Source of the DNA: Allochromatium vinosum DSM 180
Lineage (GTDB): Bacteria; Pseudomonadota; Gammaproteobacteria; Chromatiales; Chromatiaceae
Reading direction: 5' to 3'
DNA length: 40,000 nucleotides
Assembly (NCBI RefSeq): GCF_000025485.1
Contig: NC_013851.1
Location: 743,154-783,153 of the forward strand
In this document: positions 7,435-29,897 of the stretch, one piece after another
Position numbering within the stretch: the stretch's first letter is position 1
Layout of the letters: each line of letters begins with the position of its first letter
Translations under genes and position numbers: made by a program
The notes under the pieces: generated by a model
The model's database searches: none
What the model saw: only the letters and a program-made list of their open reading frames with translations
Told to the model about the DNA's origin: nothing

Positions 7435-8061
7435 ATGACTGCCGAAGCCAACGCCATTGTATTCATCGTCGACGACGACCAGGCCATGCGCACCTCGCTG
7501 CAATGGCTGATCGAGTCGACCGGGATGTCGGTCAAGACCTATGACTCGGCCGATGCCTTCCTGGCCGACTATTATCCCGGCCGTGCCGGCTGCCTGCTGC
7601 TGGACGTGCGCATGCCGGGCATGAGCGGTCTGGAGCTGCAAGCCTATCTGGCGCGCGAGGGGTTCCGGATCCCGGTCATCCTCATCACCGGGCATGGCGA
7701 CGTGGCCATGGCGGTGCGCGCCATGAAAGCCGGAGCCATGGACTTCATCGAAAAGCCCTTCCATGACGAGGATCTGTTGCGCAGCCTCCGCAACGCGCTC
7801 GACCATGATCAGAAGACGCGGGCCAATCGTCTGGCGCGTGCCGACATCGCCATGCGTCTGGCCGAGCTGACGCCGCGCGAGCACGAGGTCATGGCCATGG
7901 TCACGGACGGCAAGTCGAACAAGGAGATCGCCGCCGCGCTCGGGGTGAGCGCCAAGACGGTCGAGGCGCATCGCGCGCGGGTGATGGAGAAGATGCGCGC
8001 CGAGTCGCTGGCCGAGCTGGTGCGCATGGCGCTGATCGCCGCGCCTGAGGCGTTGGTCTGA
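7435..8061 (+). CDS. FixJ/LuxR-family response regulator (REC + HTH)
   Basis: MTAEANAIVFIVDDD..LLLDVRMPGMSG..KAGA receiver motifs, plus the LuxR-type HTH LTPREHEVMAMVTDGKSNKEIAAALGVSAKTVEAHRARVMEKM. Confidence 0.92.
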   Translation: MTAEANAIVFIVDDDQAMRTSLQWLIESTGMSVKTYDSADAFLADYYPGRAGCLLLDVRMPGMSGLELQAYLAREGFRIPVILITGHGDVAMAVRAMKAGAMDFIEKPFHDEDLLRSLRNALDHDQKTRANRLARADIAMRLAELTPREHEVMAMVTDGKSNKEIAAALGVSAKTVEAHRARVMEKMRAESLAELVRMALIAAPEALV

Positions 8062-9371: not shown

Positions 9372-10977
9372 TTGGACTTTGGACAAAGCATCCTGCCAGC
9401 CAGCAAAAATCGTTCGCTCACATACAGTTGGAGTAGACAAGTCCCCTGCAGAGGAGAGCGAACGATGACCACTTCCATGTTGAAAGATAGCCTGGAATCG
9501 CTCCAGCATTTCCGTCAACGCCTCTACGAGCACCTTGGCGCGCGCCGTGACGCCAGCCTCAATCTACTCGATAGCCTGTGCGCCAACACTCAGGCGCGTT
9601 CGGTGGTCGAGCTGAGTTTGAACCCGGCCTTCGAGCGCGATTACACCAGCCTCTACGCCGCGATCGAGGCGTTCACGCCGGAGCCGACGGCGCGCGATCC
9701 GTCCCCGTCGACGGGGTTGTCGGCCTTGGTGTCTGAACAGATTCCGGCGCCTTCGCCAGCGCGTCCATTCTGGCTGTTGGGGGTGGACACCACGCCGAAT
9801 CCACGCCCGTTCGCCGCGACCTTGGCCGATCGTGGGGTGGTCTACCAGCCCAATCCGGCTCCGGGCAACAAACCGATCGCTGTTGGGCATCACTATTCGG
9901 TGGTGGCCGCCTTGCCGGAACGCTCCCGCTGCCATCCTCCGTGGGTCGTACCGCTCCAGGCGCGGCGCGTGGCCAGCAACACCACCGCCACCGCCGTGGC
10001 GGCCTCACAGATGGCCGCTGTGCTGGCCGATCCCGCCCAACCCTATGCGACGGCGTTGAGCGTGCAGGTGGCCGACTCCCACTACAGCCACGCGGCGTAT
10101 CTGCATGCGCTCAGTGCCTTCTCCAATCATGTCGTCATCGCCCGTAGCGCCGGCAACCGCGTCTACTCTCGCGCCCCGCCCGCCACCGACGGCGCGTGCG
10201 GGCATCCGATCTGGTATGGCGAGGCCTTTCGCCTCGCCGACCCCGAGACCTGGGGGAGTCCCTGCCAGAGCGCCGAATGGCCTGATCAGACCGCCTCCGG
10301 ACGGGCCATTCGCCTCACACTGGAGCGCTGGGACGACCTGTTGATGCGCGGACATCGTGACAGCCCGATGCAGGACCACCCCTTCGATGTGGTCCGTTGC
10401 CGTGTCTTCGACGCCCAGACCGGGCGCGCGCTCTTCAAGCGCCCACTCTGGCTGATCGTGATGGGCCAACGCCGCGCCGAACTGTCCCTGCAACAGATTG
10501 AACAGGCCTACCGCCAACGCTTCGATCTGGAGCACTTCTTCCGCTTCGGCAAACACCCCCTGCTCCTCGATCGCTTTCAAACCCCCGACCTCACCCACGA
10601 AGAGCACTGGTGGCCGCTCGTCTGCCTGGCCTATGTCCAGTTATGGCTCGCCGCCCCGCTGGCCAGCGATCTGCCCAGACCTTGGGAGCGTTTCCTCCCC
10701 AAACCGCTCGCCGACACCCGCCTCTCACCCGCGCGTGTGCAGCGCGACTTCGCACGCCTTATTCGTCAGATCGGCACACCGGCCCGCGCCACCAAACGCC
10801 GGGGTATCTCCCCAGGCCGGGTCACAGGGACGCCAGGCCAGAGACGGGCACGACTCCCGATCGTCTTCAAGCGCCAACCGAGGCTCACCGCGACGGCTTG
10901 ATCGGATGCATACCACGACACGTTTCAAGAAAGCCTACTGGGCGTCGGGAAGGAGCGTGTTTTTGTCCAAAATCCAG
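9372..10977 (+). mobile_element. IS4-family insertion sequence (about 1.6 kb)
   Basis: Imperfect terminal inverted repeats TTGGACTTTGGACAAAG (left) and CTGGATTTTGGACAAAA (right, reverse complement). 7-bp direct repeat TGATATT at 9365-9371 and 10978-10984. Single transposase ORF. Confidence 0.8.
9465..10901 (+). CDS. IS4-type DDE transposase
   Basis: 478 aa from ATG 9465 (GAGGAG upstream). The C-terminal motif YRQRFDLEHFFRFGK fits the Y-x2-R-x3-E-x6-K signature of IS4-type transposases. Confidence 0.8.
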   Translation: MTTSMLKDSLESLQHFRQRLYEHLGARRDASLNLLDSLCANTQARSVVELSLNPAFERDYTSLYAAIEAFTPEPTARDPSPSTGLSALVSEQIPAPSPARPFWLLGVDTTPNPRPFAATLADRGVVYQPNPAPGNKPIAVGHHYSVVAALPERSRCHPPWVVPLQARRVASNTTATAVAASQMAAVLADPAQPYATALSVQVADSHYSHAAYLHALSAFSNHVVIARSAGNRVYSRAPPATDGACGHPIWYGEAFRLADPETWGSPCQSAEWPDQTASGRAIRLTLERWDDLLMRGHRDSPMQDHPFDVVRCRVFDAQTGRALFKRPLWLIVMGQRRAELSLQQIEQAYRQRFDLEHFFRFGKHPLLLDRFQTPDLTHEEHWWPLVCLAYVQLWLAAPLASDLPRPWERFLPKPLADTRLSPARVQRDFARLIRQIGTPARATKRRGISPGRVTGTPGQRRARLPIVFKRQPRLTATA

Positions 10978-13623: not shown

Positions 13624-16600
13624 CGGCTCGTCCCCGCGAGCGCGGGGAACGGGATTCCTGGATGAGCCTTGTTTCGGTCCCAATCGGTTCATCCCCGCGA
13701 GCGCGGGGAACGGTGGGCGTCGACGCGATCGCGCCATTCGGTGTCCGGTTCATCCCCGCGAGCGCGGGGAACGGCGCACCCAGCCGAGGATGTATCGAGA
13801 AAAATCCGGTTCATCCCCGCGAGCGCGGGGAACGGCGCCAAGCGCCCACGGTCGGCCACATCTGGAACGGTTCATCCCCGCGAGCGCGGGGAACGGGGAA
13901 CCAAGATCCTCCGTGACGCGGACCCCGAAGGTTCATCCCCGCGAGCGCGGGGAACGGCCGGCGCGGGACTCGGCTCCACATCGATGGGGCGGTTCATCCC
14001 CGCGAGCGCGGGGAACGGTCGGTGCTGGACTCGGGAATATTCAGCGCGGTCGGTTCATCCCCGCGAGCGCGGGGAACGGTGCAGAGCGGTCACTGATTCT
14101 GGAACAGAGGGCGGTTCATCCCCGCGAGCGCGGGGAACGGTTCAGCGCGGTCTTGAACGCCTCGAATGTGATCGGTTCATCCCCGCGAGCGCGGGGAACG
14201 GGTGTACACCACCTTTTCTAAGTAAAACAAGCACGGTTCATCCCCGCGAGCGCGGGGAACGGTATTGTCAGACCCATCAGAAATAGACCATAGCCGGTTC
14301 ATCCCCGCGAGCGCGGGGAACGGCTCGACAGCAAGCGCTTCCTCTTCCAGCAGGACGGTTCATCCCCGCGAGCGCGGGGAACGGGACGGCAGGATAGTAC
14401 GATGCGCGATTTCGTCCGGTTCATCCCCGCGAGCGCGGGGAACGGCTGTGATGCGTCGTTTTTTATTCCTGATTTTACGGTTCATCCCCGCGAGCGCGGG
14501 GAACGGAGGTCAGAGCCGCGCAGGGCCAAATACGCGCGCGGTTCATCCCCGCGAGCGCGGGGAACGGGCGGCATCGGTGCCGTAGCCGGCCTCCAGCGCC
14601 GGTTCATCCCCGCGAGCGCGGGGAACGGGACATCACGCCGCCGATCTGCGTGCCGTCGAGCGGTTCATCCCCGCGAGCGCGGGGAACGGGGTCTGACGAA
14701 TGGTTTGAGGCCCGCTGCGGACGGTTCATCCCCGCGAGCGCGGGGAACGGCGCGCCAATTTGCACCGCGCAACGCCGGACGCCGGTTCATCCCCGCGAGC
14801 GCGGGGAACGGCCCCTTACGCGGCTTGGACGTATCCTCACAGCCGGTTCATCCCCGCGAGCGCGGGGAACGGTTATAGCGCGATGTGGCTCCAACGGCAT
14901 CGAGCGGTTCATCCCCGCGAGCGCGGGGAACGGTCGGACTGGGATTTGGGGATAAGGTCAAGAGGCGGTTCATCCCCGCGAGCGCGGGGAACGGAAGAGC
15001 CAGAAATCAAGGCCTAAATGCCGGTGCGGTTCATCCCCGCGAGCGCGGGGAACGGCAACCTGCGTCTAATCCTGGAGAATGACCCCGCGGTTCATCCCCG
15101 CGAGCGCGGGGAACGGGCGCCCTGGCCCGATTCCGGAGCCAGGCACCGACGGTTCATCCCCGCGAGCGCGGGGAACGGGTCATGCGCCGTCGGCACAGAC
15201 GAGAACGCTACGGTTCATCCCCGCGAGCGCGGGGAACGGGCGAGCGGTGCGCGGGTGCCGGTCTTGGTCGCCGGTTCATCCCCGCGAGCGCGGGGAACGG
15301 CAACTCTACGTTTGCAATTCGATTGCGCAATTCGGTTCATCCCCGCGAGCGCGGGGAACGGTATCTGTGAGGCCACTAGTCAACGACTAATCGCGGTTCA
15401 TCCCCGCGAGCGCGGGGAACGGGAGGTATTCATTCATTTTTGAATCGATCTGACCGGTTCATCCCCGCGAGCGCGGGGAACGGTTTTCTCGCTCATTGGT
15501 CGCCTCGTGACGCATCGGTTCATCCCCGCGAGCGCGGGGAACGGTTGTTCGCGGCCCTGCTCAAGAATGCGGGCCACGGTTCATCCCCGCGAGCGCGGGG
15601 AACGGTCTACATCGCCATGAAGGGCGCTAACATCCTGCGGTTCATCCCCGCGAGCGCGGGGAACGGCCGGACATGGATTACAGCGCACGGCGCAGCCACG
15701 GTTCATCCCCGCGAGCGCGGGGAACGGAGCCGTCTGCTGGGCCTGGGCGGTCTCAGGGGCGGTTCATCCCCGCGAGCGCGGGGAACGGTGAGCGGGAAAT
15801 TGGGTCACGGTGTCGCCGGACGGTTCATCCCCGCGAGCGCGGGGAACGGATTCGCGATCGGGCGCAAGAGGAGGCTGAGACCGGTTCATCCCCGCGAGCG
15901 CGGGGAACGGGCCCCGGATCTGGCCATGCAGCCGTATGCCTACGGTTCATCCCCGCGAGCGCGGGGAACGGATCACCTGCTCGGGTTCTGCGATTCCCCC
16001 ACCCGGTTCATCCCCGCGAGCGCGGGGAACGGCAGCCGCCCGCCGAAGGATTGATACAGGATAACGGTTCATCCCCGCGAGCGCGGGGAACGGTCCTGTT
16101 CCTCGTGGCTGGCGATGGCTGTGGCCGGTTCATCCCCGCGAGCGCGGGGAACGGAACGCCCTACAGCTCGCGCGGCAGAACGAGATCGGTTCATCCCCGC
16201 GAGCGCGGGGAACGGGAGGCCCTGCCTGCGTATCACGGTGGGCAGGGCGGTTCATCCCCGCGAGCGCGGGGAACGGGTGCCTTCGCCCGTCCAGCCGGTC
16301 CAGCCATGCGGTTCATCCCCGCGAGCGCGGGGAACGGAGCCGGGATCTTGACACCGCATTTGAGCAGATCGGTTCATCCCCGCGAGCGCGGGGAACGGGC
16401 GATAAAGCGCTTGTTCGCGCTGTTCGATACCGGTTCATCCCCGCGAGCGCGGGGAACGGTCACCCTGCGCTTCCTGATCCTGGAGTAAGGCCGGTTCATC
16501 CCCGCGAGCGCGGGGAACGGACAAACGAGGGCGCGGATACCGACCGCTGGATCGGTTCATCCCCGCGAGCGCGGGGAACGGCCGGGTCTTCAAACGTAGT

Positions 16601-19206
16601 GGAGCCAATAACACGGTTCATCCCCGCGAGCGCGGGGAACGGTCAGCCATGTCGGTCGTCAGATCCTGCAAATTCGGTTCATCCCCGCGAGCGCGGGGAA
16701 CGGCCGGGTCTTCAAACGTAGTGGAGCCAATAACACGGTTCATCCCCGCGAGCGCGGGGAACGGGTATTTGATGCGGTCGAATACCTATTCAATAAAGGT
16801 TCATCCCCGCGAGCGCGGGGAACGGACCTCTGAGCCGGGGTTAATGGTGCTCATGGCCGGTTCATCCCCGCGAGCGCGGGGAACGGACGGCACGCAGCGA
16901 GACATCTGCCTCCAGCACCGGTTCATCCCCGCGAGCGCGGGGAACGGCGGTAGGTCTCGTCGTCGAGACCCAGATCCTTCGGTTCATCCCCGCGAGCGCG
17001 GGGAACGGCCACGTATAGGAAGCGCGAAAATCAGGGCGCGCGGTTCATCCCCGCGAGCGCGGGGAACGGATGTTCGTGGTTTAGTGGGTAGGCATATTCA
17101 CCGGTTCATCCCCGCGAGCGCGGGGAACGGACCGTGGATCCGGTCGGACGCTGGCGATAGACCGGTTCATCCCCGCGAGCGCGGGGAACGGCCGCCCAGA
17201 CCGTCCAGGAGGCTCCTGGCGGCCGGTTCATCCCCGCGAGCGCGGGGAACGGGCTGAATCCCCGGATGATGGGGCGCGGGTCGCCGGTTCATCCCCGCGA
17301 GCGCGGGGAACGGACGCCGAACGGCTCTGGGCGTGCTCGGGTCGCCGGTTCATCCCCGCGAGCGCGGGGAACGGTTCACCGGAATCGGGAAAACGTCGGG
17401 ATCGACCGGTTCATCCCCGCGAGCGCGGGGAACGGGATCAGAGTAATCATGCGAGTGACGCCAACCGCGGTTCATCCCCGCGAGCGCGGGGAACGGTGTC
17501 TTATATCTCTAATTCGCAGTCCATTATGCGGTTCATCCCCGCGAGCGCGGGGAACGGACTTTGATATCCTGTCTTTATCATTAAAGAACCGGTTCATCCC
17601 CGCGAGCGCGGGGAACGGACGGCACGCAGCGAGACATCTGCCTCCAGCACCGGTTCATCCCCGCGAGCGCGGGGAACGGCGAGGACTGCAAGTCCTGGCT
17701 GCGCTCGCCGACGGTTCATCCCCGCGAGCGCGGGGAACGGGCAAGGTCCAGAGCACGAAAGAAATTAGGCGGCGGTTCATCCCCGCGAGCGCGGGGAACG
17801 GGAAATCCATTTCGGGCGAATCCAACGGGGCGTCGGTTCATCCCCGCGAGCGCGGGGAACGGAGCGATTTTTTCGATTCACTGCCGACTGTTTACGGTTC
17901 ATCCCCGCGAGCGCGGGGAACGGGGCAGCGAGTTCCTCGACGAGATGGTGCGCACCGGTTCATCCCCGCGAGCGCGGGGAACGGAACAAGGCTGATGCGA
18001 CCCGCGCGAAAGCGTTCGGTTCATCCCCGCGAGCGCGGGGAACGGTCGAGCAACCGCAGCGCGTTCGGGAACTGCGTCGGTTCATCCCCGCGAGCGCGGG
18101 GAACGGGGTGGCGCTGCTGTGCTATGACGAGCTGACGCACGGTTCATCCCCGCGAGCGCGGGGAACGGTGTCATTCCTCCCGCCCGGCGCAGTCATAAAG
18201 CGGTTCATCCCCGCGAGCGCGGGGAACGGCGGAGCAAGGCCGCAGTAGCCGCGACGGCGAGCGGTTCATCCCCGCGAGCGCGGGGAACGGACCGAATCCC
18301 CGACGACCCCAGGATCCCAAGACGGTTCATCCCCGCGAGCGCGGGGAACGGCGGCTGTCATCGCATTTATGGGTCTCAAGCGGCGGTTCATCCCCGCGAG
18401 CGCGGGGAACGGGTACGGACGCAGCGACTCTTGGTGGCGCTGTGCGGTTCATCCCCGCGAGCGCGGGGAACGGTTGTATCTATCTGAGTAGGTGTTCCAA
18501 TGAACCGGTTCATCCCCGCGAGCGCGGGGAACGGCTGTCCTGATGTCGGCGACTCGGGACTCTGAACGGTTCATCCCCGCGAGCGCGGGGAACGGCTAAA
18601 AGCATCCCGAGGGAGCGTATAAGGCCGCGGTTCATCCCCGCGAGCGCGGGGAACGGAGCGTCAGCCGCTCCGCGATGGCTAGTCCAGGCGGTTCATCCCC
18701 GCGAGCGCGGGGAACGGGCGCCGGGCGTGCGATCGATCTCGTCAAATATCGGTTCATCCCCGCGAGCGCGGGGAACGGCTCCCCAAACCACCGCCAGAAG
18801 TTCCTCACCCCGGTTCATCCCCGCGAGCGCGGGGAACGGGCCAACAATCCAGCCACCATCACTAGCGCTCGCGGTTCATCCCCGCGAGCGCGGGGAACGG
18901 TTCCCAGGTTTGGCGTGTTTTTCCCTGGCTTTCGGTTCATCCCCGCGAGCGCGGGGAACGGGGGGCGGGCGTCTGTAGATTGGGCCGCGTCAGCGGTTCA
19001 TCCCCGCGAGCGCGGGGAACGGGTTTACCGACAAGCCCCCGGACATGCGAATCAACGGTTCATCCCCGCGAGCGCGGGGAACGGGCGTGTTTTTCCCCGG
19101 CTCTCTTCGGCGTGCACGGTTCATCCCCGCGAGCGCGGGGAACGGGGAGTTCTGCCAATAATTGTGGTGGAACCTGTCGGTTCATCCCCGCGAGCGCGGG
19201 GAACGG
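13624..19206 (-). CRISPR. Type I-E CRISPR array, 92 repeats / 91 spacers
   Basis: 29-bp repeat CGGTTCATCCCCGCGAGCGCGGGGAACGG on the plus strand. Its transcribed form CCGTTCCCCGCGCTCGCGGGGATGAACCG closely resembles the E. coli I-E repeat. 88 spacers of 32 nt and 3 of 33 nt. Degenerate terminal repeat at 13624-13652 (CGGCTCGTCC...). Leader and cas2 lie on the 19207 side, so transcription is on the minus strand. Confidence 0.98.
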
Positions 19207-19308
19207 ACTTCCCATACTTGCCTGATCTAGAAAAAGAAATCAGACGCTGAGAAATCTACCAACAAAATGCCTCTTTTCAAAGGGGCACGATTTTGATTGT
19301 CAAAGAAC
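19207..19308 (-). promoter_or_regulatory. CRISPR leader (AT-rich) with candidate promoter TTGAAA-16-TAGATT
   Basis: 102-bp AT-rich segment between the cas2 stop and the first repeat. Minus-strand TTGAAA (19275-19280) and TAGATT (19253-19258) are 16 nt apart. The promoter assignment is tentative. Confidence 0.6.
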
Positions 19309-20554: not shown

Positions 20555-20767
20555 TCAGGCCGCGATCTCGATGTAGTCGACCTGACTGGTCGGCGTTGGC
20601 ACCGGCAAGCCATCTTCTCGCAGACCTTCCAGATGAAACGCGATCGCTTCCCGAATCTCCCGCTCGGTCTCCTCCAGGGTGCGCCCGGTAGCGATGCACC
20701 CTGGCAGATCGGGGACATAGGCCGAGTAGTTATGCTCTGCTCGTTCGATCACGATGGCGTAACGCAT
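20555..20767 (-). CDS. hicB: HicB-family antitoxin-like protein (short form, no DNA-binding domain)
   Basis: 70 aa from ATG 20767. MRYAIVIERAEHNYSAYVPDLPGCIATGRTLEETEREIREAIAFHLEGL is the HicB/UPF0150 N-terminal fold pattern. Inserted between cas6e and cas1. Confidence 0.8.
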   Translation of the reverse strand: MRYAIVIERAEHNYSAYVPDLPGCIATGRTLEETEREIREAIAFHLEGLREDGLPVPTPTSQVDYIEIAA

Positions 20768-20778
20768 TGTCGCGGCCC

Positions 20779-20849
20779 TCATTTCCAACCGGCTTGTTTG
20801 TAATACTGCTCACCGTGCCTGGAGCCAAGTCGTCGCTCGACTTGCCCGG
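20779..20849 (-). pseudogene. HicA toxin C-terminal remnant (truncated and frameshifted)
   Basis: Directly after the cas6e stop, two frames together read PGKSSDDLAPGTVSS / YYKQAGWK*. This resembles the HicA C-terminus (..GKDLKPGTLRSILKQAGL). The stop is 11 nt before the hicB ATG. No N-terminal part exists. Confidence 0.45.
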
Positions 20850-23811: not shown

Positions 23812-25330
23812 TGGCTCTCCTTGAGTTTCTTGAGATCAGCATTCAGGCTGCGGCGTGCCCAAGCGATGATTGGGATCAACTCAGGTTTCATTGTGTAAGG
23901 TTCGGTCATAGCATCGAAGATATCGCGGCAGTCAGCAGCAAGCGCATCGATATAAGCCGCGCGATTCTCTTTCCATTGCATGAACGTAGTCGGTCTGGAC
24001 AAAGTTTCAATGATTTTGCCTTCGGTCCGAGAGTAGAAGATTCGTTCTCCGACGTCCTGTATAGGAGATCCAATTCCTGGAAGCATTTTTTCTTATGCCC
24101 TTTGGACGCGAAAGAGAGCTTGTCCTTTAGACTCTCTTTGGCTTTTATGCCCAGCGCTACCAAATCTTTTAATCGACTGCCGTCTTCTTCGCTCCAGCCC
24201 GCTGCCAGAGAAAGCATCTCATGACGGCGCTCTGTGACCGATGCTTTGTTATTGCGGTAGCCGCCTATGATCAAAGTAAGTGGTTGGGGCTTTTCGAGCG
24301 CTGTTACTGCCATTGATTTAGCTTGAGCGACCGGAGTCGCTGGCCGACTGCCTTCTCCTTTCGGGCCATTGATGCGTAGGACCATCTCTGTGAGGCGTGT
24401 CCAGGCCGGAGCCTCTGTGGTGAAGGAGGCAAATTTCATCTCCAACGCACCCTTCTTGAGGCTCGACTGGAGTACGCCATGCGGATGCGGCCAAGTGCCT
24501 TCCAGCGTGAAGTTGAATTTCTCCTTCCGAAAGCCTGTGTAGAGCGGGCCAGCCTCAATGCCGAGCAGGTCGCAAGGTCCGGATTCGCGGCTACCAACCA
24601 GCTCGACATGGGCCGGCTGCCAGAACAGTCCGCGAGCGAGTCCGATTTGGTGAGCATGGATCGTCTCTTTTGACCGAATCGGTTCGATCCAGGTCGGCAG
24701 ATCCTGACTCAGGTCGTGCTGCCAATCCGGGAAATCCGTGCGGATGAACTCCGGGGTCAGCACATTGCACCAGATCCGTTTGCGCAGATTGCGGCCATCG
24801 ACGAGTGTCGTGATAGGAGCGATACCACGCAGACTGCCCTTAAAACCGCCGCCGAAGCTGGGGCAATTGGTCGCTTGATGGAAGAGCGCGATGGCGGCAA
24901 CCGGCGCTGAAAGCACCGAGACCTCACCAGGCGCGTTGAAAAAGGCATGATTGGTCCCCTCCGGCAGGCCGATCAGGAGTTTTTGGATGGGCGTGACGTC
25001 TTTGGCAACGACTCCGCGTGTTTGCATGAAAGGCTGCGTCGGGTGATCCAGGTCGAACCATTCCAGGCAGGGCGAAATGCCCTCGGTGAATTCGTCTGGT
25101 GTGAGCGGTATATCGATGCGGTCCAGCAGGACATCATCCTCCGGGGGCAGGAACATGATCTGCGTCATGCAGATCAGGAGTTGCAGACAGGCCAGTTCCA
25201 GGTCGTCTCGGGGAAGACTGATCTGCCAGTCTTCGTCTTCGCAGAGCAGTTCCTGATAGGTGAGCAACCGAAACGTGCCACTTCCGCCGTGGGCTCGCAC
25301 CGGGATCCAGGGTGTCTTCAACAGATCCAT
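23808..25330 (-). pseudogene. cas8e: Cas8e (Cse1, CasA) large subunit, reading frame broken at an A6 run
   Basis: N-terminal frame 25330->24092 (MDLLKTPWIPVRAHGG.., 421 good residues). The C-terminal 92 aa are in the -1 frame from 24086 to 23808 and are coupled to cse2. One extra A in the run at 24086-24091 would give about 513 aa. Confidence 0.85.
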
Positions 25331-25385
25331 AATCCTCATCCTGAACACGACTGGCGCCGCAGTTGGTGCAGACGCCTTGGTTTTT

Positions 25386-25535
25386 CTAGAGTCGAAGCAG
25401 GAACAGTGTTGCTATAAAGAACAGGAAAATCAGCAACATCAGCATCGCAATCAGTTTGAGTGCGACTATCCCATCCGGGCCCAGTTTGCCGAGTTCGACC
25501 ACCAGATCTTTCAAGGCTTTGATCGTCTCAAACAT
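25386..25535 (-). CDS. Hypothetical 49-aa tail-anchored hydrophobic peptide (candidate CRISPR-repressed toxin)
   Basis: ATG 25535 with GGAG 6 nt upstream. MFETIKALKDLVVELGKLGPDGIVALKLIAMLMLLIFLFFIATLFLLRL. About 25 hydrophobic C-terminal residues; AT-rich codons; first ORF downstream of the 25571-25598 promoter. Confidence 0.5.
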   Translation of the reverse strand: MFETIKALKDLVVELGKLGPDGIVALKLIAMLMLLIFLFFIATLFLLRL

Positions 25536-25570
25536 TCTGAGCTCCACCAAATCGAGTACGAATGTCGCTG

Positions 25571-25598
25571 AGTATAGTCGGCGCGTTTCAACTTGCAA
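25571..25598 (-). promoter_or_regulatory. Sigma-70-type promoter TTGCAA-16 nt-TATACT reading toward the small ORF and cas8e
   Basis: Minus strand -35 TTGCAA (25593-25598) and -10 TATACT (25571-25576). About 30 nt of 5' UTR with a GGAG SD follows. Confidence 0.55.
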
Positions 25599-25610
25599 GA
25601 GTTAAAGTGT
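25597..25610 (+). promoter_or_regulatory. Predicted Cascade binding site: AAG PAM + seed match to the mini-CRISPR pseudo-spacer
   Basis: AAG|AGTTAAAGTGT versus pseudo-spacer AGTTACAGTGT. 10/11 identical, the only mismatch at position 6. Overlaps the -35 hexamer of the minus-strand promoter. Confidence 0.6.
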
Positions 25611-25638
25611 TAATCTCATCGTGTGCTATTCTTTGACA

Positions 25639-25728
25639 GAATTCCCGGCTTAGCTTGGGATGACCCAAGTTACAGTGTCCTGTGACATCGAAATTGGGTT
25701 CGTTCCCCGCATTAGCGGGGTGCCTCCG
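25639..25728 (+). ncRNA. CreA/CreR-like mini-CRISPR (psiR1 - 32-nt pseudo-spacer - psiR2), inverted relative to the main array
   Basis: psiR1 25639-25667 is 16/29 identical to the repeat and psiR2 25700-25728 is 20/29 with an intact CCCCGC/GCGGGG stem. Exact 61-nt period. psiR2 overlaps the cas3 stop codon. Confidence 0.6.
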
Positions 25729-28345
25729 TCGGCGGGTCCATGAGGCCCGCCGTTTCTGCTTTGGCCAAGCCAAGCTCAGTCGTGTAGCAGACTCCTCCAT
25801 CAAGGCTACTCCAGCGTTGTTGGCCGTCGTCATGCATCTTGAGCCGAATGCGGCCATCCTCATCGCGGACGTGGCCCGCAAGCTGCCTGTCGCCCCAACT
25901 GTGCGGTGCGGGAACCGTGTTCAACATGAGCGTTTCAGCTTGGGTGTATTCGTCCATCTGGTCAGGATCTTCGCCGTCCAGCAGGCGACCATCCTCTCGA
26001 GTCAGCAGAACGGATAAGCTCATTTCGCCATCTCGTGTGAGCGAGGTCAGGCGCTCTTCGTCGTCGCGAAATTTGCTCAGGTTCATGGTCGTGAGACGAT
26101 GTGCTTTCTTTTCTGCCTCGCTTTGGTCGTCCCGCCACGCCAGATGTTTGCCATAGACGGTCCCAGGCTCATCATCCCAGGGAGCTTCTCCATAGACAGG
26201 CTCGATCCATTCCCGATAGGCTGCTGGAAAATGGATCTGCTTGTGCCGGGCCAGCAGGAACTCGGTTCGCCACAGCAGGCGTGCATCGCCGTAGATCAGT
26301 TCATGCAGACCGTAATCGTCCGTTTCGACCGACAGGACGGTGCAGGTGGGAACCTGGAAATCATCGGGACGTTTGCGCGAGTGTCTGTGCAAGCGTCCGA
26401 GACGCTGGAATAGGAGGTCGACCGGGCAGAGCTGAGTGATGAGCCAATCGAAGTCCAGATCGAGGCTCTGCTCGATGACCTGGGTCGCGACCAGGATGCG
26501 TCCTTGAGTCCGTTCGGCGTCACGTCCGTAGTGCTCGATCACCCGCTGCTCGATACGCTGTCGGTCCTGGAGCCTGAAGCGGGCATGGAAGAGATCGACG
26601 GGCACCTGGGCATTCTTGTGGAGCTGAATCCAGAGTTGCTGAGCATCGTCGACCGTGTTCATCACGATGCCAACCAGGGCACCGGATTCGGCTGCGTCGA
26701 TGATACGTTGGATGAGCGGCTCGTCGGGGCAAGCACCGCCCAGTTTGGAGAGGCTGACTTCGATGGTGCGTTGGGCCGGGCGCTCGGTGTCCGGCAAGCT
26801 CAAGGGTGAGTCGGATTCGGATAGCGCGGCCGTATTCCAGATGGCCGGATAATTGGCGACATCCGCGACTGGTTCGTGCCCCCATGATTCCAAAAGCTTG
26901 CCGCGAATGCTGGCGGGCAAGGTCGCCGACAGCAGGATGGCGCTTCCCCCAACCGCCTTCTGGCGCTTGAGCACCTCGATCAGCAGCCCATTCATGTAGG
27001 CATCATAGGCATGCACCTCGTCGACGATCAGAACGGAGCGGTGCAGCCCGAAAGCCCGGACGAAATTGTGTCTGACCGGCAGGACGGACAGCAAGACCTG
27101 ATCGACCGTGCAGACGCCGATCTGTCCCAGGAAGACACGCTTGCGGCTGCTGGCCAGCCAGGCGGCACACTGGACGCCGGCCTCGGTCTCGCCCTGAGCC
27201 GTGCGTTTGGATCCGGCCTCGATAAGCCGTTGGTACGCCTGATTCAGCCGACTATGCCCATGAGCCAGAACCAGATTCGCGCGACCAAAGGCGCTCTTGG
27301 AGAAGGTTTCACAACGTCCAAGCATCGCGTTTGCCGTGGCCTGAGTGGGAAGCGCGAAGACGATCGACTCGGCCAGTCCGGCATCGATCAGGCGCCAGGC
27401 GTAGGCCAATGCCGCTTCGGTCTTGCCGCTGCCCGTGGGAGCTTCAACGATCGTCAGTCCTGGAACAAGCGGCAGATCGTCGATCATGACCTGAGTGCCG
27501 CGCGGATGCTCGTCGGTTTTGAGCAGAGCCGGGATTCCCTGATAGGCCAGCGGCGTGGCGATCAGCCCGAAGTGCCTCAAGATATCGTCGCGTCTGATCT
27601 GCTCCAAGCGTGAATGCAAATAGTCGTTTGGAGAGAGTGCAGGCGGGGCGTAGGCAAAGACGTCGACATTGGAGCCTATCCAGTCGCACAGACTACAGAA
27701 TCCCGCCAGCAGGTTTCGGGCTTCGGTTACGCATGGCGGTGGTGGATCTTCGAGGCTCAACCCAGCCGGGTGGAGGAAGAGATCGGCCGCTTCCTGGATC
27801 CATGCACGGCGCGCATTGGCGTCTTGCTCCAATATAGTCGCTTCGGCATAAGCAGGAAGAGGATCGTCGTTATCCGGGATCTCTCCGTGATGCCCCGTCA
27901 CGGCGGCAAGCCACGAGGACCAAGCTTTCAATGCGTGACGGCTTGCGGGTTTGAACCAACCGCGAAGCTCGGCCATCGACAGACGGTATCCTTCACGGCC
28001 ATGATCGTAGTGTCCGCCCGAGGTATCGATCAGCTTCGTCGAGGCTAGATCGGGCCAGATCTGAGGCAGGATATGGGGGGCTTTGATCTGAAACAGCGCG
28101 TGCAGCTTTCCGATGTCATGGAGTGCGACGAAAAACAGGATCCACGCCAGAAGCCGCTGAATTTCCGCCTCTTCCACGTCAAAGGCAGCCATGAGAGTAC
28201 GGCGGACTGCCGACGAATCTCGCCAAAACGTTGCTGCAATTACTGCTGCATCGAGGGAATGGTAAGCGAAGGGATGCCATTTGTTGGCCCCTTCGACTCC
28301 CGTATCTGCCTTCGCCCAATAACGCCAATAGTCCTTGGATAACAT
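25712..28345 (-). CDS. cas3: Cas3 HD nuclease / SF2 helicase (I-E)
   Basis: Start at ATG 28345 (GGAG 7 nt upstream). HD region ..HPFAYHSLDAA..ALHDIGK.., helicase motifs APTGSGKTEAAL and DEVHAYD, C-terminal domain. 877 aa. Confidence 0.95.
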   Translation of the reverse strand: MLSKDYWRYWAKADTGVEGANKWHPFAYHSLDAAVIAATFWRDSSAVRRTLMAAFDVEEAEIQRLLAWILFFVALHDIGKLHALFQIKAPHILPQIWPDLASTKLIDTSGGHYDHGREGYRLSMAELRGWFKPASRHALKAWSSWLAAVTGHHGEIPDNDDPLPAYAEATILEQDANARRAWIQEAADLFLHPAGLSLEDPPPPCVTEARNLLAGFCSLCDWIGSNVDVFAYAPPALSPNDYLHSRLEQIRRDDILRHFGLIATPLAYQGIPALLKTDEHPRGTQVMIDDLPLVPGLTIVEAPTGSGKTEAALAYAWRLIDAGLAESIVFALPTQATANAMLGRCETFSKSAFGRANLVLAHGHSRLNQAYQRLIEAGSKRTAQGETEAGVQCAAWLASSRKRVFLGQIGVCTVDQVLLSVLPVRHNFVRAFGLHRSVLIVDEVHAYDAYMNGLLIEVLKRQKAVGGSAILLSATLPASIRGKLLESWGHEPVADVANYPAIWNTAALSESDSPLSLPDTERPAQRTIEVSLSKLGGACPDEPLIQRIIDAAESGALVGIVMNTVDDAQQLWIQLHKNAQVPVDLFHARFRLQDRQRIEQRVIEHYGRDAERTQGRILVATQVIEQSLDLDFDWLITQLCPVDLLFQRLGRLHRHSRKRPDDFQVPTCTVLSVETDDYGLHELIYGDARLLWRTEFLLARHKQIHFPAAYREWIEPVYGEAPWDDEPGTVYGKHLAWRDDQSEAEKKAHRLTTMNLSKFRDDEERLTSLTRDGEMSLSVLLTREDGRLLDGEDPDQMDEYTQAETLMLNTVPAPHSWGDRQLAGHVRDEDGRIRLKMHDDGQQRWSSLDGGVCYTTELGLAKAETAGLMDPPTEAPR
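25730..25762 (+). terminator. Candidate intrinsic terminator for the plus-strand mini-CRISPR transcript (antisense, inside the cas3 3' end)
   Basis: 7-bp GC stem CGGCGGG / CCCGCCG (25730-25736 / 25746-25752) followed by TTTCTGCTTT (25753-25762). Confidence 0.45.
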
Positions 28346-28651
28346 GACGGGACTCCGCTTTTCCGTGTCATCAGGAGTCCTGATCATAGACGAAGTGACG
28401 GGCGTTCCGCCAAACCTGGGATGGCGTATTTCGTGTATTGTTTGGGCTTTGTCGCCGTTAGAGTGAAGATGGGCAGTCGGTCAAGGCGCGCTTGATATCG
28501 ATGGATTGTCAGCCGGACGCCCGACTCCTACACTGTGACGCATTCGTGACCCTTCCTGCCTCCGTGCCGAGGCCATGGTTTCTGTCGCGCCTCCCTCACC
28601 GTCGGCCCGACCGGGCCGCAGATCAACCCTCAACGATCAAAACGATCAACC

Positions 28652-29528: not shown

Positions 29529-29897
29529 TCACTCCGCGCTTCGCTCGTTCCGCTCGTTCCGCTCGTTCCGCTCGTTCCGCTCGTTCCGCTCGTTCCGCTC
29601 GGCCGGAATGAGTGTCGGGACACGCGGATCGATCCCCTCCAGCATGAACACGAACGCCAGCACCTCGGCGACGGCCACATAGAGCGCGCGCGGGATCTCA
29701 GCCCCGAGCGGGATCTGCGCCAGAGCCTCCACGAGCACCGGATCGGCGCGCAGCGGGATGTCGTGCTCCTCGGCGATCTTGAGGATCTGTTCGGCGGTCA
29801 GGCCGGTTCCGGTGGCTGTGATGCGGGGAGCGTGTTCGCGGTCCCAGTGGAGCGCGACCGCCTTGGTGGTCTTGGGACGTTGAGGGGGGGCGCTCAC
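29529..29897 (-). CDS. FlhB C-terminal-domain-like protein (EscU/YscU/HrcU family, stand-alone short form)
   Basis: 122 aa. AVALHWDREHAPRITATGTGLTAEQILKIAEEHDIPLRADPVLVEAL..IPRALYVAVAEVLAFV, then a C-terminal (NER)n tail. Overlaps the fliK stop. Confidence 0.8.
   Translation of the reverse strand: MSAPPQRPKTTKAVALHWDREHAPRITATGTGLTAEQILKIAEEHDIPLRADPVLVEALAQIPLGAEIPRALYVAVAEVLAFVFMLEGIDPRVPTLIPAERNERNERNERNERNERNERSAE
29543..29601. repeat. 9-bp tandem repeat GCTCGTTCC x 6.5, in frame in the flhB-like gene
   Basis: Six perfect consecutive copies from 29543 to 29596 plus a partial copy. Encodes NERNERNERNERNERNER on the minus strand. Confidence 0.95.

Follow-up and report, generated by a model that had tools for sequence, protein, structure and literature searches.

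The type I-E CRISPR (short palindromic repeats, clustered and regularly interspaced) system of Salmonella enterica encodes CreR, which has been shown experimentally to repress the promoter P_casA. CreR uses an AAG protospacer-adjacent motif (PAM) and 15 matching nucleotides (nt) at a target located about 140 bp upstream of casA (Liu et al., bioRxiv 10.1101/2023.03.10.532045). A survey of type I-E loci (Shmakov et al., PMC10120712) reports predicted regulatory mini-arrays in ~19% of them, typically situated between cas3 and cas8 and running opposite to cas3. According to this survey, the mini-arrays target the cas8 promoter with mismatches noted at position 6, and cargo genes, among which toxin-antitoxin genes are enriched, lie between mini-arrays and cas genes. 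In the type I-B system of Haloarcula hispanica, a single CreA site between divergent promoters represses both creT and the cas8 operon. In the type I-F CrePA system of Acinetobacter, CreA represses the KilA-N protein toxin CreP (bioRxiv 10.1101/2024.01.05.574328). The present analysis concerns a two-repeat mini-CRISPR in the gap between cas3 and cas8e of Allochromatium vinosum DSM 180. It was found in a stretch of 40,000 nt of contig NC_013851.1 (positions 743,154 to 783,153 of the forward strand), which is called the window below and in which all positions are counted from the first letter.

The mini-CRISPR is very probably a gene for a regulatory RNA of the CreR/CreA type, resembling a CRISPR RNA (crRNA) and belonging to the type I-E system of the window. 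An earlier note, which pointed out the element from the letters of the DNA, suggested the CreA/CreR-like interpretation and left undecided whether a type I-E version had been described. The interpretation is strengthened by a seed match at an AAG site, by the overlap of that site with a -35 box, by a terminator-like hairpin and by related loci. The question of precedent is answered by Salmonella CreR and by the survey of type I-E loci: mini-CRISPRs of this type are already described, and the element of the window adds a case. The target site, the promoter, the terminator-like hairpin and a small gene between the target and cas8e had escaped the earlier note. Nothing else in the locus is as unusual as the small gene, which is conserved, unannotated and tied to the guide; no description of it was found in the literature searched.

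Organization of the mini-CRISPR

The mini-CRISPR has a 29-32-29 layout and occupies positions 25639-25728 of the plus strand, inverted relative to the cas operon and the main array, both of which are on the minus strand. The degenerate first repeat, psiR1 (GAATTCCCGGCTTAGCTTGGGATGACCCA, 25639-25667, plus strand), is identical in 16 of 29 positions to CCGTTCCCCGCGCTCGCGGGGATGAACCG, the transcribed repeat of the main array. Its last 8 nt, ATGACCCA (25660-25667), form the prospective crRNA 5' handle and agree with the repeat in six of eight positions. The psiR1 hairpin in the window, CCCGG/TTGGG, is weak. The pseudo-spacer, psiS, is 32 nt long (AGTTACAGTGTCCTGTGACATCGAAATTGGGT, 25668-25699, plus strand) and is followed by the second repeat, psiR2 (25700-25728, plus strand), so that the two repeats are 61 nt apart. 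psiR2 is identical to the array repeat in 20 of 29 positions overall and in 17 of its first 21, the part kept in a mature crRNA. It has an intact Cas6e-type hairpin, CCCCGC-ATTA-GCGGGG (25705-25720), with all 12 stem bases retained. Known Cas6e behaviour places the predicted mature 3' end at 25720, which would give a 61-nt RNA over 25660-25720. The sequences, coordinates, period, identities, psiR2 stem and orientation reported in the earlier note were all reproduced, as was the location of the cas3 stop codon, TAA (25712-25714), in the psiR2 loop.

A terminator-like hairpin lies directly 3' of psiR2 (25730-25762, plus strand), consisting of a 9-bp GC-rich stem at 25730-25752 and the T-rich sequence TTTCTGCTTT. 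It is the sole terminator-like site found; it is on the plus strand and lies inside the last cas3 codons, which are on the other strand. The last ~17 codons of cas3 (25712-25762, minus strand) are antisense to this terminator and to psiR2. The Cas3 C-terminus in the window reads ...LGLAKAETAGLMDPPTEAPR, and in loci without a mini-CRISPR the protein ends about 10 residues sooner (...FGLEKTDEPA). The stop codon of cas3, either TAA or TGA, is situated within the psiR2 loop in several lineages.

A possible extended -10 element, TGcTATTCT, can be read by eye at 25624-25632 of the plus strand and could start transcription of the mini-CRISPR near the beginning of psiR1. The sequence GTGCTATTCT is kept in the window and in the related loci L001, L004, L006 and L008 despite diverging flanks. 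The hexamer TTGACA at 25633-25638 was considered as the promoter and rejected, as it is not conserved in L001 and transcription would start inside or after the handle. A self-fold of psiS at 25669-25686 (GUUACAG/CUGUGAC) would mask the seed in the free RNA; it is not kept in the close relative L001 and was disregarded. A scan of 25300-25900 against Rfam (E up to 10) returned noise only.

The resemblance of a single repeat to the array repeat is a poor guide in this GC-rich window. Dozens of sites reach at least 16/29, and one other site reaches 20/29. Repeat similarity alone is therefore weak, and the identity of single sites was discarded as evidence. The arrangement of the pair is far more unusual. 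In the window, array part excluded, there is one case of a site with 16/29 or more being followed, 60-62 nt further on, by one with 20/29 or more, and there is none in 300 dinucleotide-preserving shuffles, which bears out the shuffling check proposed in the earlier note. When scoring was confined to the parts with a function, namely the 8 nt of the psiR1 handle and the first 21 nt of psiR2 (observed 6/8 and 17/21), 3 of the 300 shuffles reached the observed score. The comparative data described below remove the remaining doubt that the mini-CRISPR is real.

Target site and promoter

The target was sought on both strands of the window by matching the psiS seed with every sixth position skipped. 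Of all seed matches in the window, both strands included, the best is a protospacer-like site at 25600-25631 of the plus strand, 68 nt upstream of the pseudo-spacer and on the same strand. The target seed, 25600-25610, matches psiS positions 1-5 and 7-11; there is a mismatch at position 6 and from position 12 on. Directly before the seed match is AAG (25597-25599, plus strand), the canonical type I-E PAM. A seed and PAM match of this quality is expected by chance within the gap about 3e-4 times per locus, according to our own calculation.

The PAM overlaps a predicted promoter. A sigma-70-like site on the minus strand (25571-25598) faces the small gene and cas8e and consists of the -35 hexamer TTGCAA (25598-25593), a 16-nt spacer and the -10 hexamer TATACT (25576-25571). 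It is the sole promoter-like site in 25200-25900, where shuffles contain 0.1 on average, and its -35 box overlaps the AAG. The pseudo-spacer thus matches promoter DNA upstream of the predicted transcription start, and not the small open reading frame (ORF) or its leader. The target was also considered as a third, decayed spacer of an old array and rejected as such: its spacing of 65-135 nt varies between loci, and it is preceded by AAG and not by the end of a repeat. Viral contigs were scanned for a phage-borne handle and seed ('Cracr'), and no match was found.

Related loci

A Cas8e scan with one genome per species yielded 26 loci at 42-97% identity. One of these, L030, matched only from Cas8e residue 177 and was left out, so that 25 genome loci were compared; 17 more loci came from metagenomic contigs encoding relatives of the small protein. 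An inverted mini-CRISPR is present upstream of cas8e in nine of the genome loci and absent from 14, the remaining two being on contigs too short to judge. Loci with a mini-CRISPR score 23-27 of 31 and those without it 14-20. Of the 14 loci that lack a mini-CRISPR, 13 have a cas3 abutting or overlapping cas8e, and in the other the two genes are 82 nt apart. The layout is kept as 29-(31 to 33)-29 in orthologous loci, down to 56-68% Cas8e identity. This conservation, combined with compensatory changes in the stems, is what the earlier note had proposed to look for.

Mini-CRISPRs are carried by about 14 related lineages, and the spacer seeds differ from lineage to lineage (AGTTA-AGTGT, AGTTG-GATGT, AGATT-ACCGT, CTGTC-GTGTT, AGGTA-GTCGG, TAGGT-AAGGT, CTGGT-AGTGT, TGATA-GGGCT, CGTGT-ACTGC, TGAGT-GGTTT and CAGGT-ACTGT). 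The spacer of each lineage matches, at 9-10 of 10 seed positions, an AAG-flanked site just upstream of its own psiR1, on the cas8e side, and the AAG is present in 15 of the 15 loci tested. When every spacer was compared with every locus, all 15 found their own locus and otherwise close kin; about 200 unrelated spacer-locus pairs gave three matches, against about two expected by chance. The strict seed filter missed the target of L025, which has a mismatch at position 8; this target was seen by eye at the promoter and recovered by a 9/10 filter.

Among close relatives, psiS positions 1-5 and 7-10 are conserved and positions 6 and 11-20 are variable. At position 6 the spacer differs from the target in all lineages but one, and the base varies in both among close relatives while the flanking seed is fixed. 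Such free variation at position 6 is expected for a Cascade guide. The association with the promoter also recurs. In most lineages, read on the cas8e strand, the complement of the PAM, CTT, together with the next base, G, supplies the TTG of a -35 hexamer, and a TAnnnT -10 element follows 16-18 nt after it. The co-variation of seed and target in these loci is an observation, as are the anatomy of the element and its conservation; for a repression that would depend on seed, PAM and Cascade, it is indirect support.

The hairpins are conserved as structures. The psiR2 stem is paired in all 13 lineages, five of which have a double change from G-C to A-U. In the 12 lineages other than that of the window, the psiR1 stem is kept by differing sequences, such as CCCTAG/CTAGGG, CCCTCA/TGAGGG, CCTTGC/GCAGGG and CCCTCC/GGAGGG, and in all of these except L007 it ends right before ATGAACCG. 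A single fixed register under-counts the pairing of psiR1, because the loop lengths differ; even so, three pairs are changed on both sides in that register. With a stem search for each sequence, the mean psiR1 stem is 5.4 bp long, compared with 4.0 bp in shuffles, and none of 2000 shuffles reaches this value. The covariation score is 0.303 against 0.185 in shuffles, is reached by none of 500, and exceeds that of all slid controls. A GC-rich hairpin, with stems of differing sequence, directly follows psiR2 in most of 15 loci; it is weak or displaced in L034.

Proposed mode of action

A short plus-strand transcript would run from near psiR1 to the hairpin at 25730-25762. Cas6e, behaving as it is known to, would cut at the base of both repeat hairpins and release a 61-nt RNA in which the handle AUGACCCA is followed by the 32-nt pseudo-spacer and then by the hairpin of psiR2; this RNA would be loaded into Cascade. 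Cascade would then read the AAG at 25597-25599 and pair with the 11-nt seed region only, position 6 being flipped out; the match itself is present in the DNA. Since only the seed pairs, no complete R-loop would form and Cas3 would not be licensed to cut, as follows from established type I-E biochemistry and from the experiments on Salmonella CreR. The bound complex would cover the -35 box, TTGCAA (25593-25598), and would repress the promoter that the small gene is predicted to share with cas8e-cse2-cas7-cas5-cas6e. The result would be negative feedback, in which more Cascade gives more repression, until anti-CRISPR proteins, or crRNAs from the main array with its 92 repeats, divert Cascade and the promoter opens. 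The small membrane protein would be a conserved passenger of this circuit. If the sequence TGcTATTCT is the promoter of the guide, binding of Cascade might also damp the synthesis of the guide itself.

Several points weigh against this scheme. Transcription, processing by Cas6e, loading into Cascade, binding and repression are all deduced from type I-E biochemistry and from Salmonella CreR. The psiR1 hairpin of the window is the weakest of the set, with three G-C and two G-U pairs, and the handle has two changes (ATGACCCA in place of ATGAACCG), so that processing or loading may be inefficient here. The promoters and the terminator are matches to consensus sequences only, and no promoter could be assigned convincingly to the mini-CRISPR itself. 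With 10 paired positions, the seed is short beside the 15 consecutive nt of Salmonella CreR. Finally, the loci compared are phylogenetically related, and the conservation within the Allochromatium group counts as one observation.

The small membrane-protein gene

The small gene is an ORF of 49 residues on the minus strand (25386-25535), with the product MFETIKALKDLVVELGKLGPDGIVALKLIAMLMLLIFLFFIATLFLLRL and a GGAG Shine-Dalgarno sequence at 25545-25542. It is the first cistron 3' of the target promoter. The next gene is cas8e, and a scan of the gap found no terminator between the two. From its N-terminus, the protein has a first helix, then a GP hinge and then a membrane helix at the C-terminal end, its C-terminal half being hydrophobic. 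The AlphaFold model has a pLDDT (predicted local distance difference test) score of 92 and shows helices at residues 2-16 and 20-48. A first protein search with the 49-residue sequence alone returned two near-identical proteins, and the family emerged only from an alignment of ORFs situated upstream of cas8e in related loci. A search with this alignment recovered 36 proteins, none of them named, which are 31-79 residues long (core ~41-49) and have the consensus MVExIKAIKELxxExGKVGPTGxAVLALxVALSAIWVLGGK. When 1.84 billion representatives were searched exhaustively with the profile, just 26 clusters matched, each of 35-70 residues. No match was found in Pfam (E up to 10), NCBIfam, PADLOC or PHROGs. 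The ratio of non-synonymous to synonymous substitution rates (dN/dS) is 0.05-0.3 between diverged pairs, which indicates that this is a real gene under purifying selection.

Nine family members were looked up, and in eight of these the gene is located between cas3 and cas8e. The exception is L038 (2400-3280), where the small gene, the mini-CRISPR and the AAG target with its promoter are upstream of cas3, directly after a gene for a WYL-domain regulator; between this trio and cas3 there are about 520 nt of seemingly non-coding DNA, along with a second promoter-like site. Wherever the upstream region is readable, a mini-CRISPR occurs together with the small gene, and an AAG target lies 38-74 nt upstream of it. 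When translated upstream regions were scanned with the profile, none of the 14 loci without a mini-CRISPR had the gene. In L012 (Lamprocystis purpurea DSM 4197, ~7850-7970) the gene is a pseudogene (profile E = 9e-11), with an in-frame TGA at the hinge and no in-frame start codon, and the mini-CRISPR and AAG target are intact. In L010 there is a faint remnant of the gene, and in L008 and L011 the profile scan found none; the mini-CRISPR is kept in all three. These patterns of co-occurrence and decay are those to be expected of a toxin held in check by the guide; they are also compatible with a harmless gene in the operon leader.

Many relatives have a 4-nt overlap of the small gene with cas8e, or else the GGK codons at the end of the small gene, containing GGAGG, form the cas8e ribosome-binding site. 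The sequence GGAGGnAAA, encoding the Gly-Gly-Lys end and serving as the Shine-Dalgarno sequence of cas8e, is found in L015 (3440-3449), L025 (7990-8001) and L013 (3600-3616), among others. The small genes of the window and of L007 are ~55 nt from cas8e, lack the GGK end and have a longer hydrophobic tail. By eye, the small ORF has no run of repeated rare codons after its start. The literature search found no small membrane protein under CreA in type I-E, which does not thereby exclude prior publication.

Alternative explanations

Two explanations would deny the mini-CRISPR any part in regulation, and both are very improbable. The element could be what is left of an old inverted array that has decayed and lost its function, or it could be a chance likeness, given that matches of 16/29 and 20/29 arise elsewhere in the GC-rich window. 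This is hard to reconcile with the absence of the pair from all 300 shuffles and with a layout kept down to 56-68% Cas8e identity, the hairpins of which are held by compensatory changes. The spacer seeds moreover co-vary with their PAM-flanked targets, and the cross-test argues against an artefact of the search. Equally far-fetched is the proposal that the hairpins serve termination or stability at the 3' end of the cas3 mRNA on the minus strand, the likeness to repeats being incidental. psiR2 and the GC-rich hairpin do overlap the end of cas3, with the stop codon in the psiR2 loop. On the minus strand, however, neither hairpin is followed by a run of T; the terminator pattern is seen on the plus strand only, and psiR1, the handle, the 61-nt period and the seed-target matches would be left unexplained.

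Within a CreR/CreA-type regulatory RNA, the role of the small gene can be seen in two ways. There is nearly an even chance that the RNA is purely an autoregulator of the Cas genes, as CreR is, and that the small gene is harmless, either a leader cistron coupling translation into cas8e or a membrane accessory. The doubling of the GGK codons as the cas8e Shine-Dalgarno sequence and the 4-nt overlaps in many relatives favour this, as do the mini-CRISPRs that stand alone in L008 and L011 and the absence of a partner toxin from Salmonella CreR (bioRxiv 10.1101/2023.03.10.532045). A mere coupling device, however, needs no conserved protein of 40 residues with a dN/dS of 0.05-0.3; the small genes of the window and L007 are separated from cas8e and without the GGK end, and that of L038 adjoins no cas start codon. 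It is possible, though on balance doubtful, that the locus is instead a CRISPR-repressed toxin-antitoxin module in the manner of CreTA or CrePA, the small membrane protein being a type I-like toxin and the mini-CRISPR RNA the antitoxin, CreA. If Cascade were lost or blocked by an anti-CRISPR, the promoter would open fully, the peptide would accumulate in the membrane and growth would stop. This would refine the CreR/CreA-type interpretation and not contradict it; the same site would regulate Cascade as well. The small gene is the first cistron behind the presumed repressed promoter, is under purifying selection, and encodes a protein that is like a typical small membrane toxin in size and in its helix-hinge-membrane-helix shape. 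Its association with the mini-CRISPR and AAG target wherever these can be read, and its absence from all 14 loci without a mini-CRISPR, point in the same direction, although such co-occurrence is also expected of any gene in that operon leader. In L038, with a promoter of its own and ~520 nt and a second promoter-like site before cas3, it looks like the main regulated product. The pseudogene of L012 and the loss of the gene from L008 and L011, each with the mini-CRISPR kept, are the decay expected if the toxin is dispensable and the antitoxin is not. Toxin-antitoxin genes are also reported in the survey (PMC10120712) to be enriched between type I-E mini-arrays and cas genes. Against a toxin, the overlap or GGAGG coupling to cas8e in many relatives means that the protein would be made whenever Cascade is made, which is awkward, and the protein matches no toxin family.

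The surrounding locus

The minus strand of the window carries a complete type I-E system, all eight cas genes being present according to NCBIfam matches. cas3 (25712-28387) matches NF007248 with 1260 bits. The first Cascade gene, cas8e or cse1, is located 3' of the small gene (23906-25330) and matches NF007247 with E = 1e-195. The longest ORF of cas8e begins with GTG at 25348, and the NF007247 alignment begins at residue 7 of this long ORF; the start is likely the ATG at 25330, as the gene calls of L001 and L004 also use ATG. The other cas genes are cse2, cas7, cas5, cas6e, cas1 and cas2. The main array (13624-19206, minus strand) has ~92 repeats and is the source of the reference repeat and of the competing crRNAs. 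A degenerate repeat (27/29) is situated at its far end, at 13624. The leader is short, with ~100 nt (19207-19308) between the first array repeat (19178-19206) and the stop codon of cas2. The nearest genome is that of Allochromatium humboldtianum DSM 21881 (locus L006), with a Cas8e that is 97% identical.

Between cas6e and cas1 is a gene for a HicB-like antitoxin of 77 residues (20555-20788, minus strand; Pfam HicB_lk_antitox, E = 2e-14), with no room beside it for a HicA partner. The related contig L001 has this insertion too (10759-10971). Upstream of cas3, a perfect 9-bp tandem repeat, CGCTCGTTC, is present in 6.7 copies at 29542-29601, between an Asp/Glu racemase-like gene and a FliK-like gene.

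Comparison with known systems

The element of the window resembles Salmonella CreR in being a degenerate two-repeat mini-CRISPR inside a type I-E cas locus, in retaining the 8-nt handle of psiR1 and the hairpin of psiR2, and in having a spacer partly complementary to an AAG-PAM site at the casA/cas8e promoter. The expected outcome would also be the same, namely autorepression of Cascade that responds to the crRNA load and to anti-CRISPRs. The differences are in the details. In place of 15 consecutive nt, the predicted seed of the window has 10 paired positions with position 6 skipped; the target is ~270 nt upstream of cas8e and not ~140 nt; and a small membrane-protein gene is situated between the target and cas8e, whereas no partner gene is described for CreR. 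The mini-arrays of the survey (PMC10120712) share with this locus the long cas3-cas8 gap, the antisense orientation to cas3, the AAG-PAM target at the cas8 promoter, the tolerated mismatch at position 6 and, in some cases, a cargo gene between the mini-array and the cas genes. In the survey the upstream repeat is described as close to the array repeat and the downstream repeat as degraded, whereas in the window the upstream repeat is the more degenerate overall; in the text consulted, the small membrane-protein family is not described.

The value of the mini-CRISPR itself is confirmatory. It provides an unusually clean comparative case for such elements working as Cascade guides, in which about a dozen distinct seeds co-vary with their own promoter sites, and it adds a recurring detail of design, the AAG PAM built into the TTG of the -35 box.

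The small-protein family can be set beside three kinds of toxin. In the CreTA system of Haloarcula hispanica, as would be the case here, a passenger gene and the cas8 operon are under one site and the guide pairs through its seed only. The toxin CreT, however, is itself a small RNA; it has a strong Shine-Dalgarno sequence and a mini-ORF of rare codons, by which a rare tRNA is sequestered. The passenger of the window is a conserved protein gene of 49 codons, predicted to share the cas8e transcript; the subtype and the domain of life also differ. CrePA is similar in having a protein-coding gene under a promoter repressed by Cascade and CreA, and it shows that CRISPR-repressed protein toxins exist. 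Its toxin is a KilA-N protein of a type I-F system, whereas the protein of the window is a 49-residue membrane-helix protein, without a Pfam domain (E up to 10), of a type I-E system. The toxins of type I toxin-antitoxin systems (Hok, TisB, Fst) have fewer than 60 residues and one hydrophobic helix, with RNA as the controlling partner. The protein of the window is likewise a small hydrophobic peptide with one membrane helix; comparison with the type I toxins found no sequence relation, and control would act through Cascade at the promoter DNA and not through an antisense RNA on the toxin mRNA.

Tentatively, the family may comprise CRISPR-repressed protein toxins of type I-E that share a promoter with the Cascade genes. 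If it does not, some Cascade operons nonetheless begin with a conserved gene that had not been described. If it does, type I-E systems would own an addiction or anti-anti-CRISPR device wired to the Cascade promoter, and the question would arise how the cell tolerates the induction of its Cas genes. Loss or inhibition of Cascade would then lead to membrane damage and growth arrest, and the locus would be a type I-E counterpart of CreTA and CrePA with a toxin resembling those of type I.

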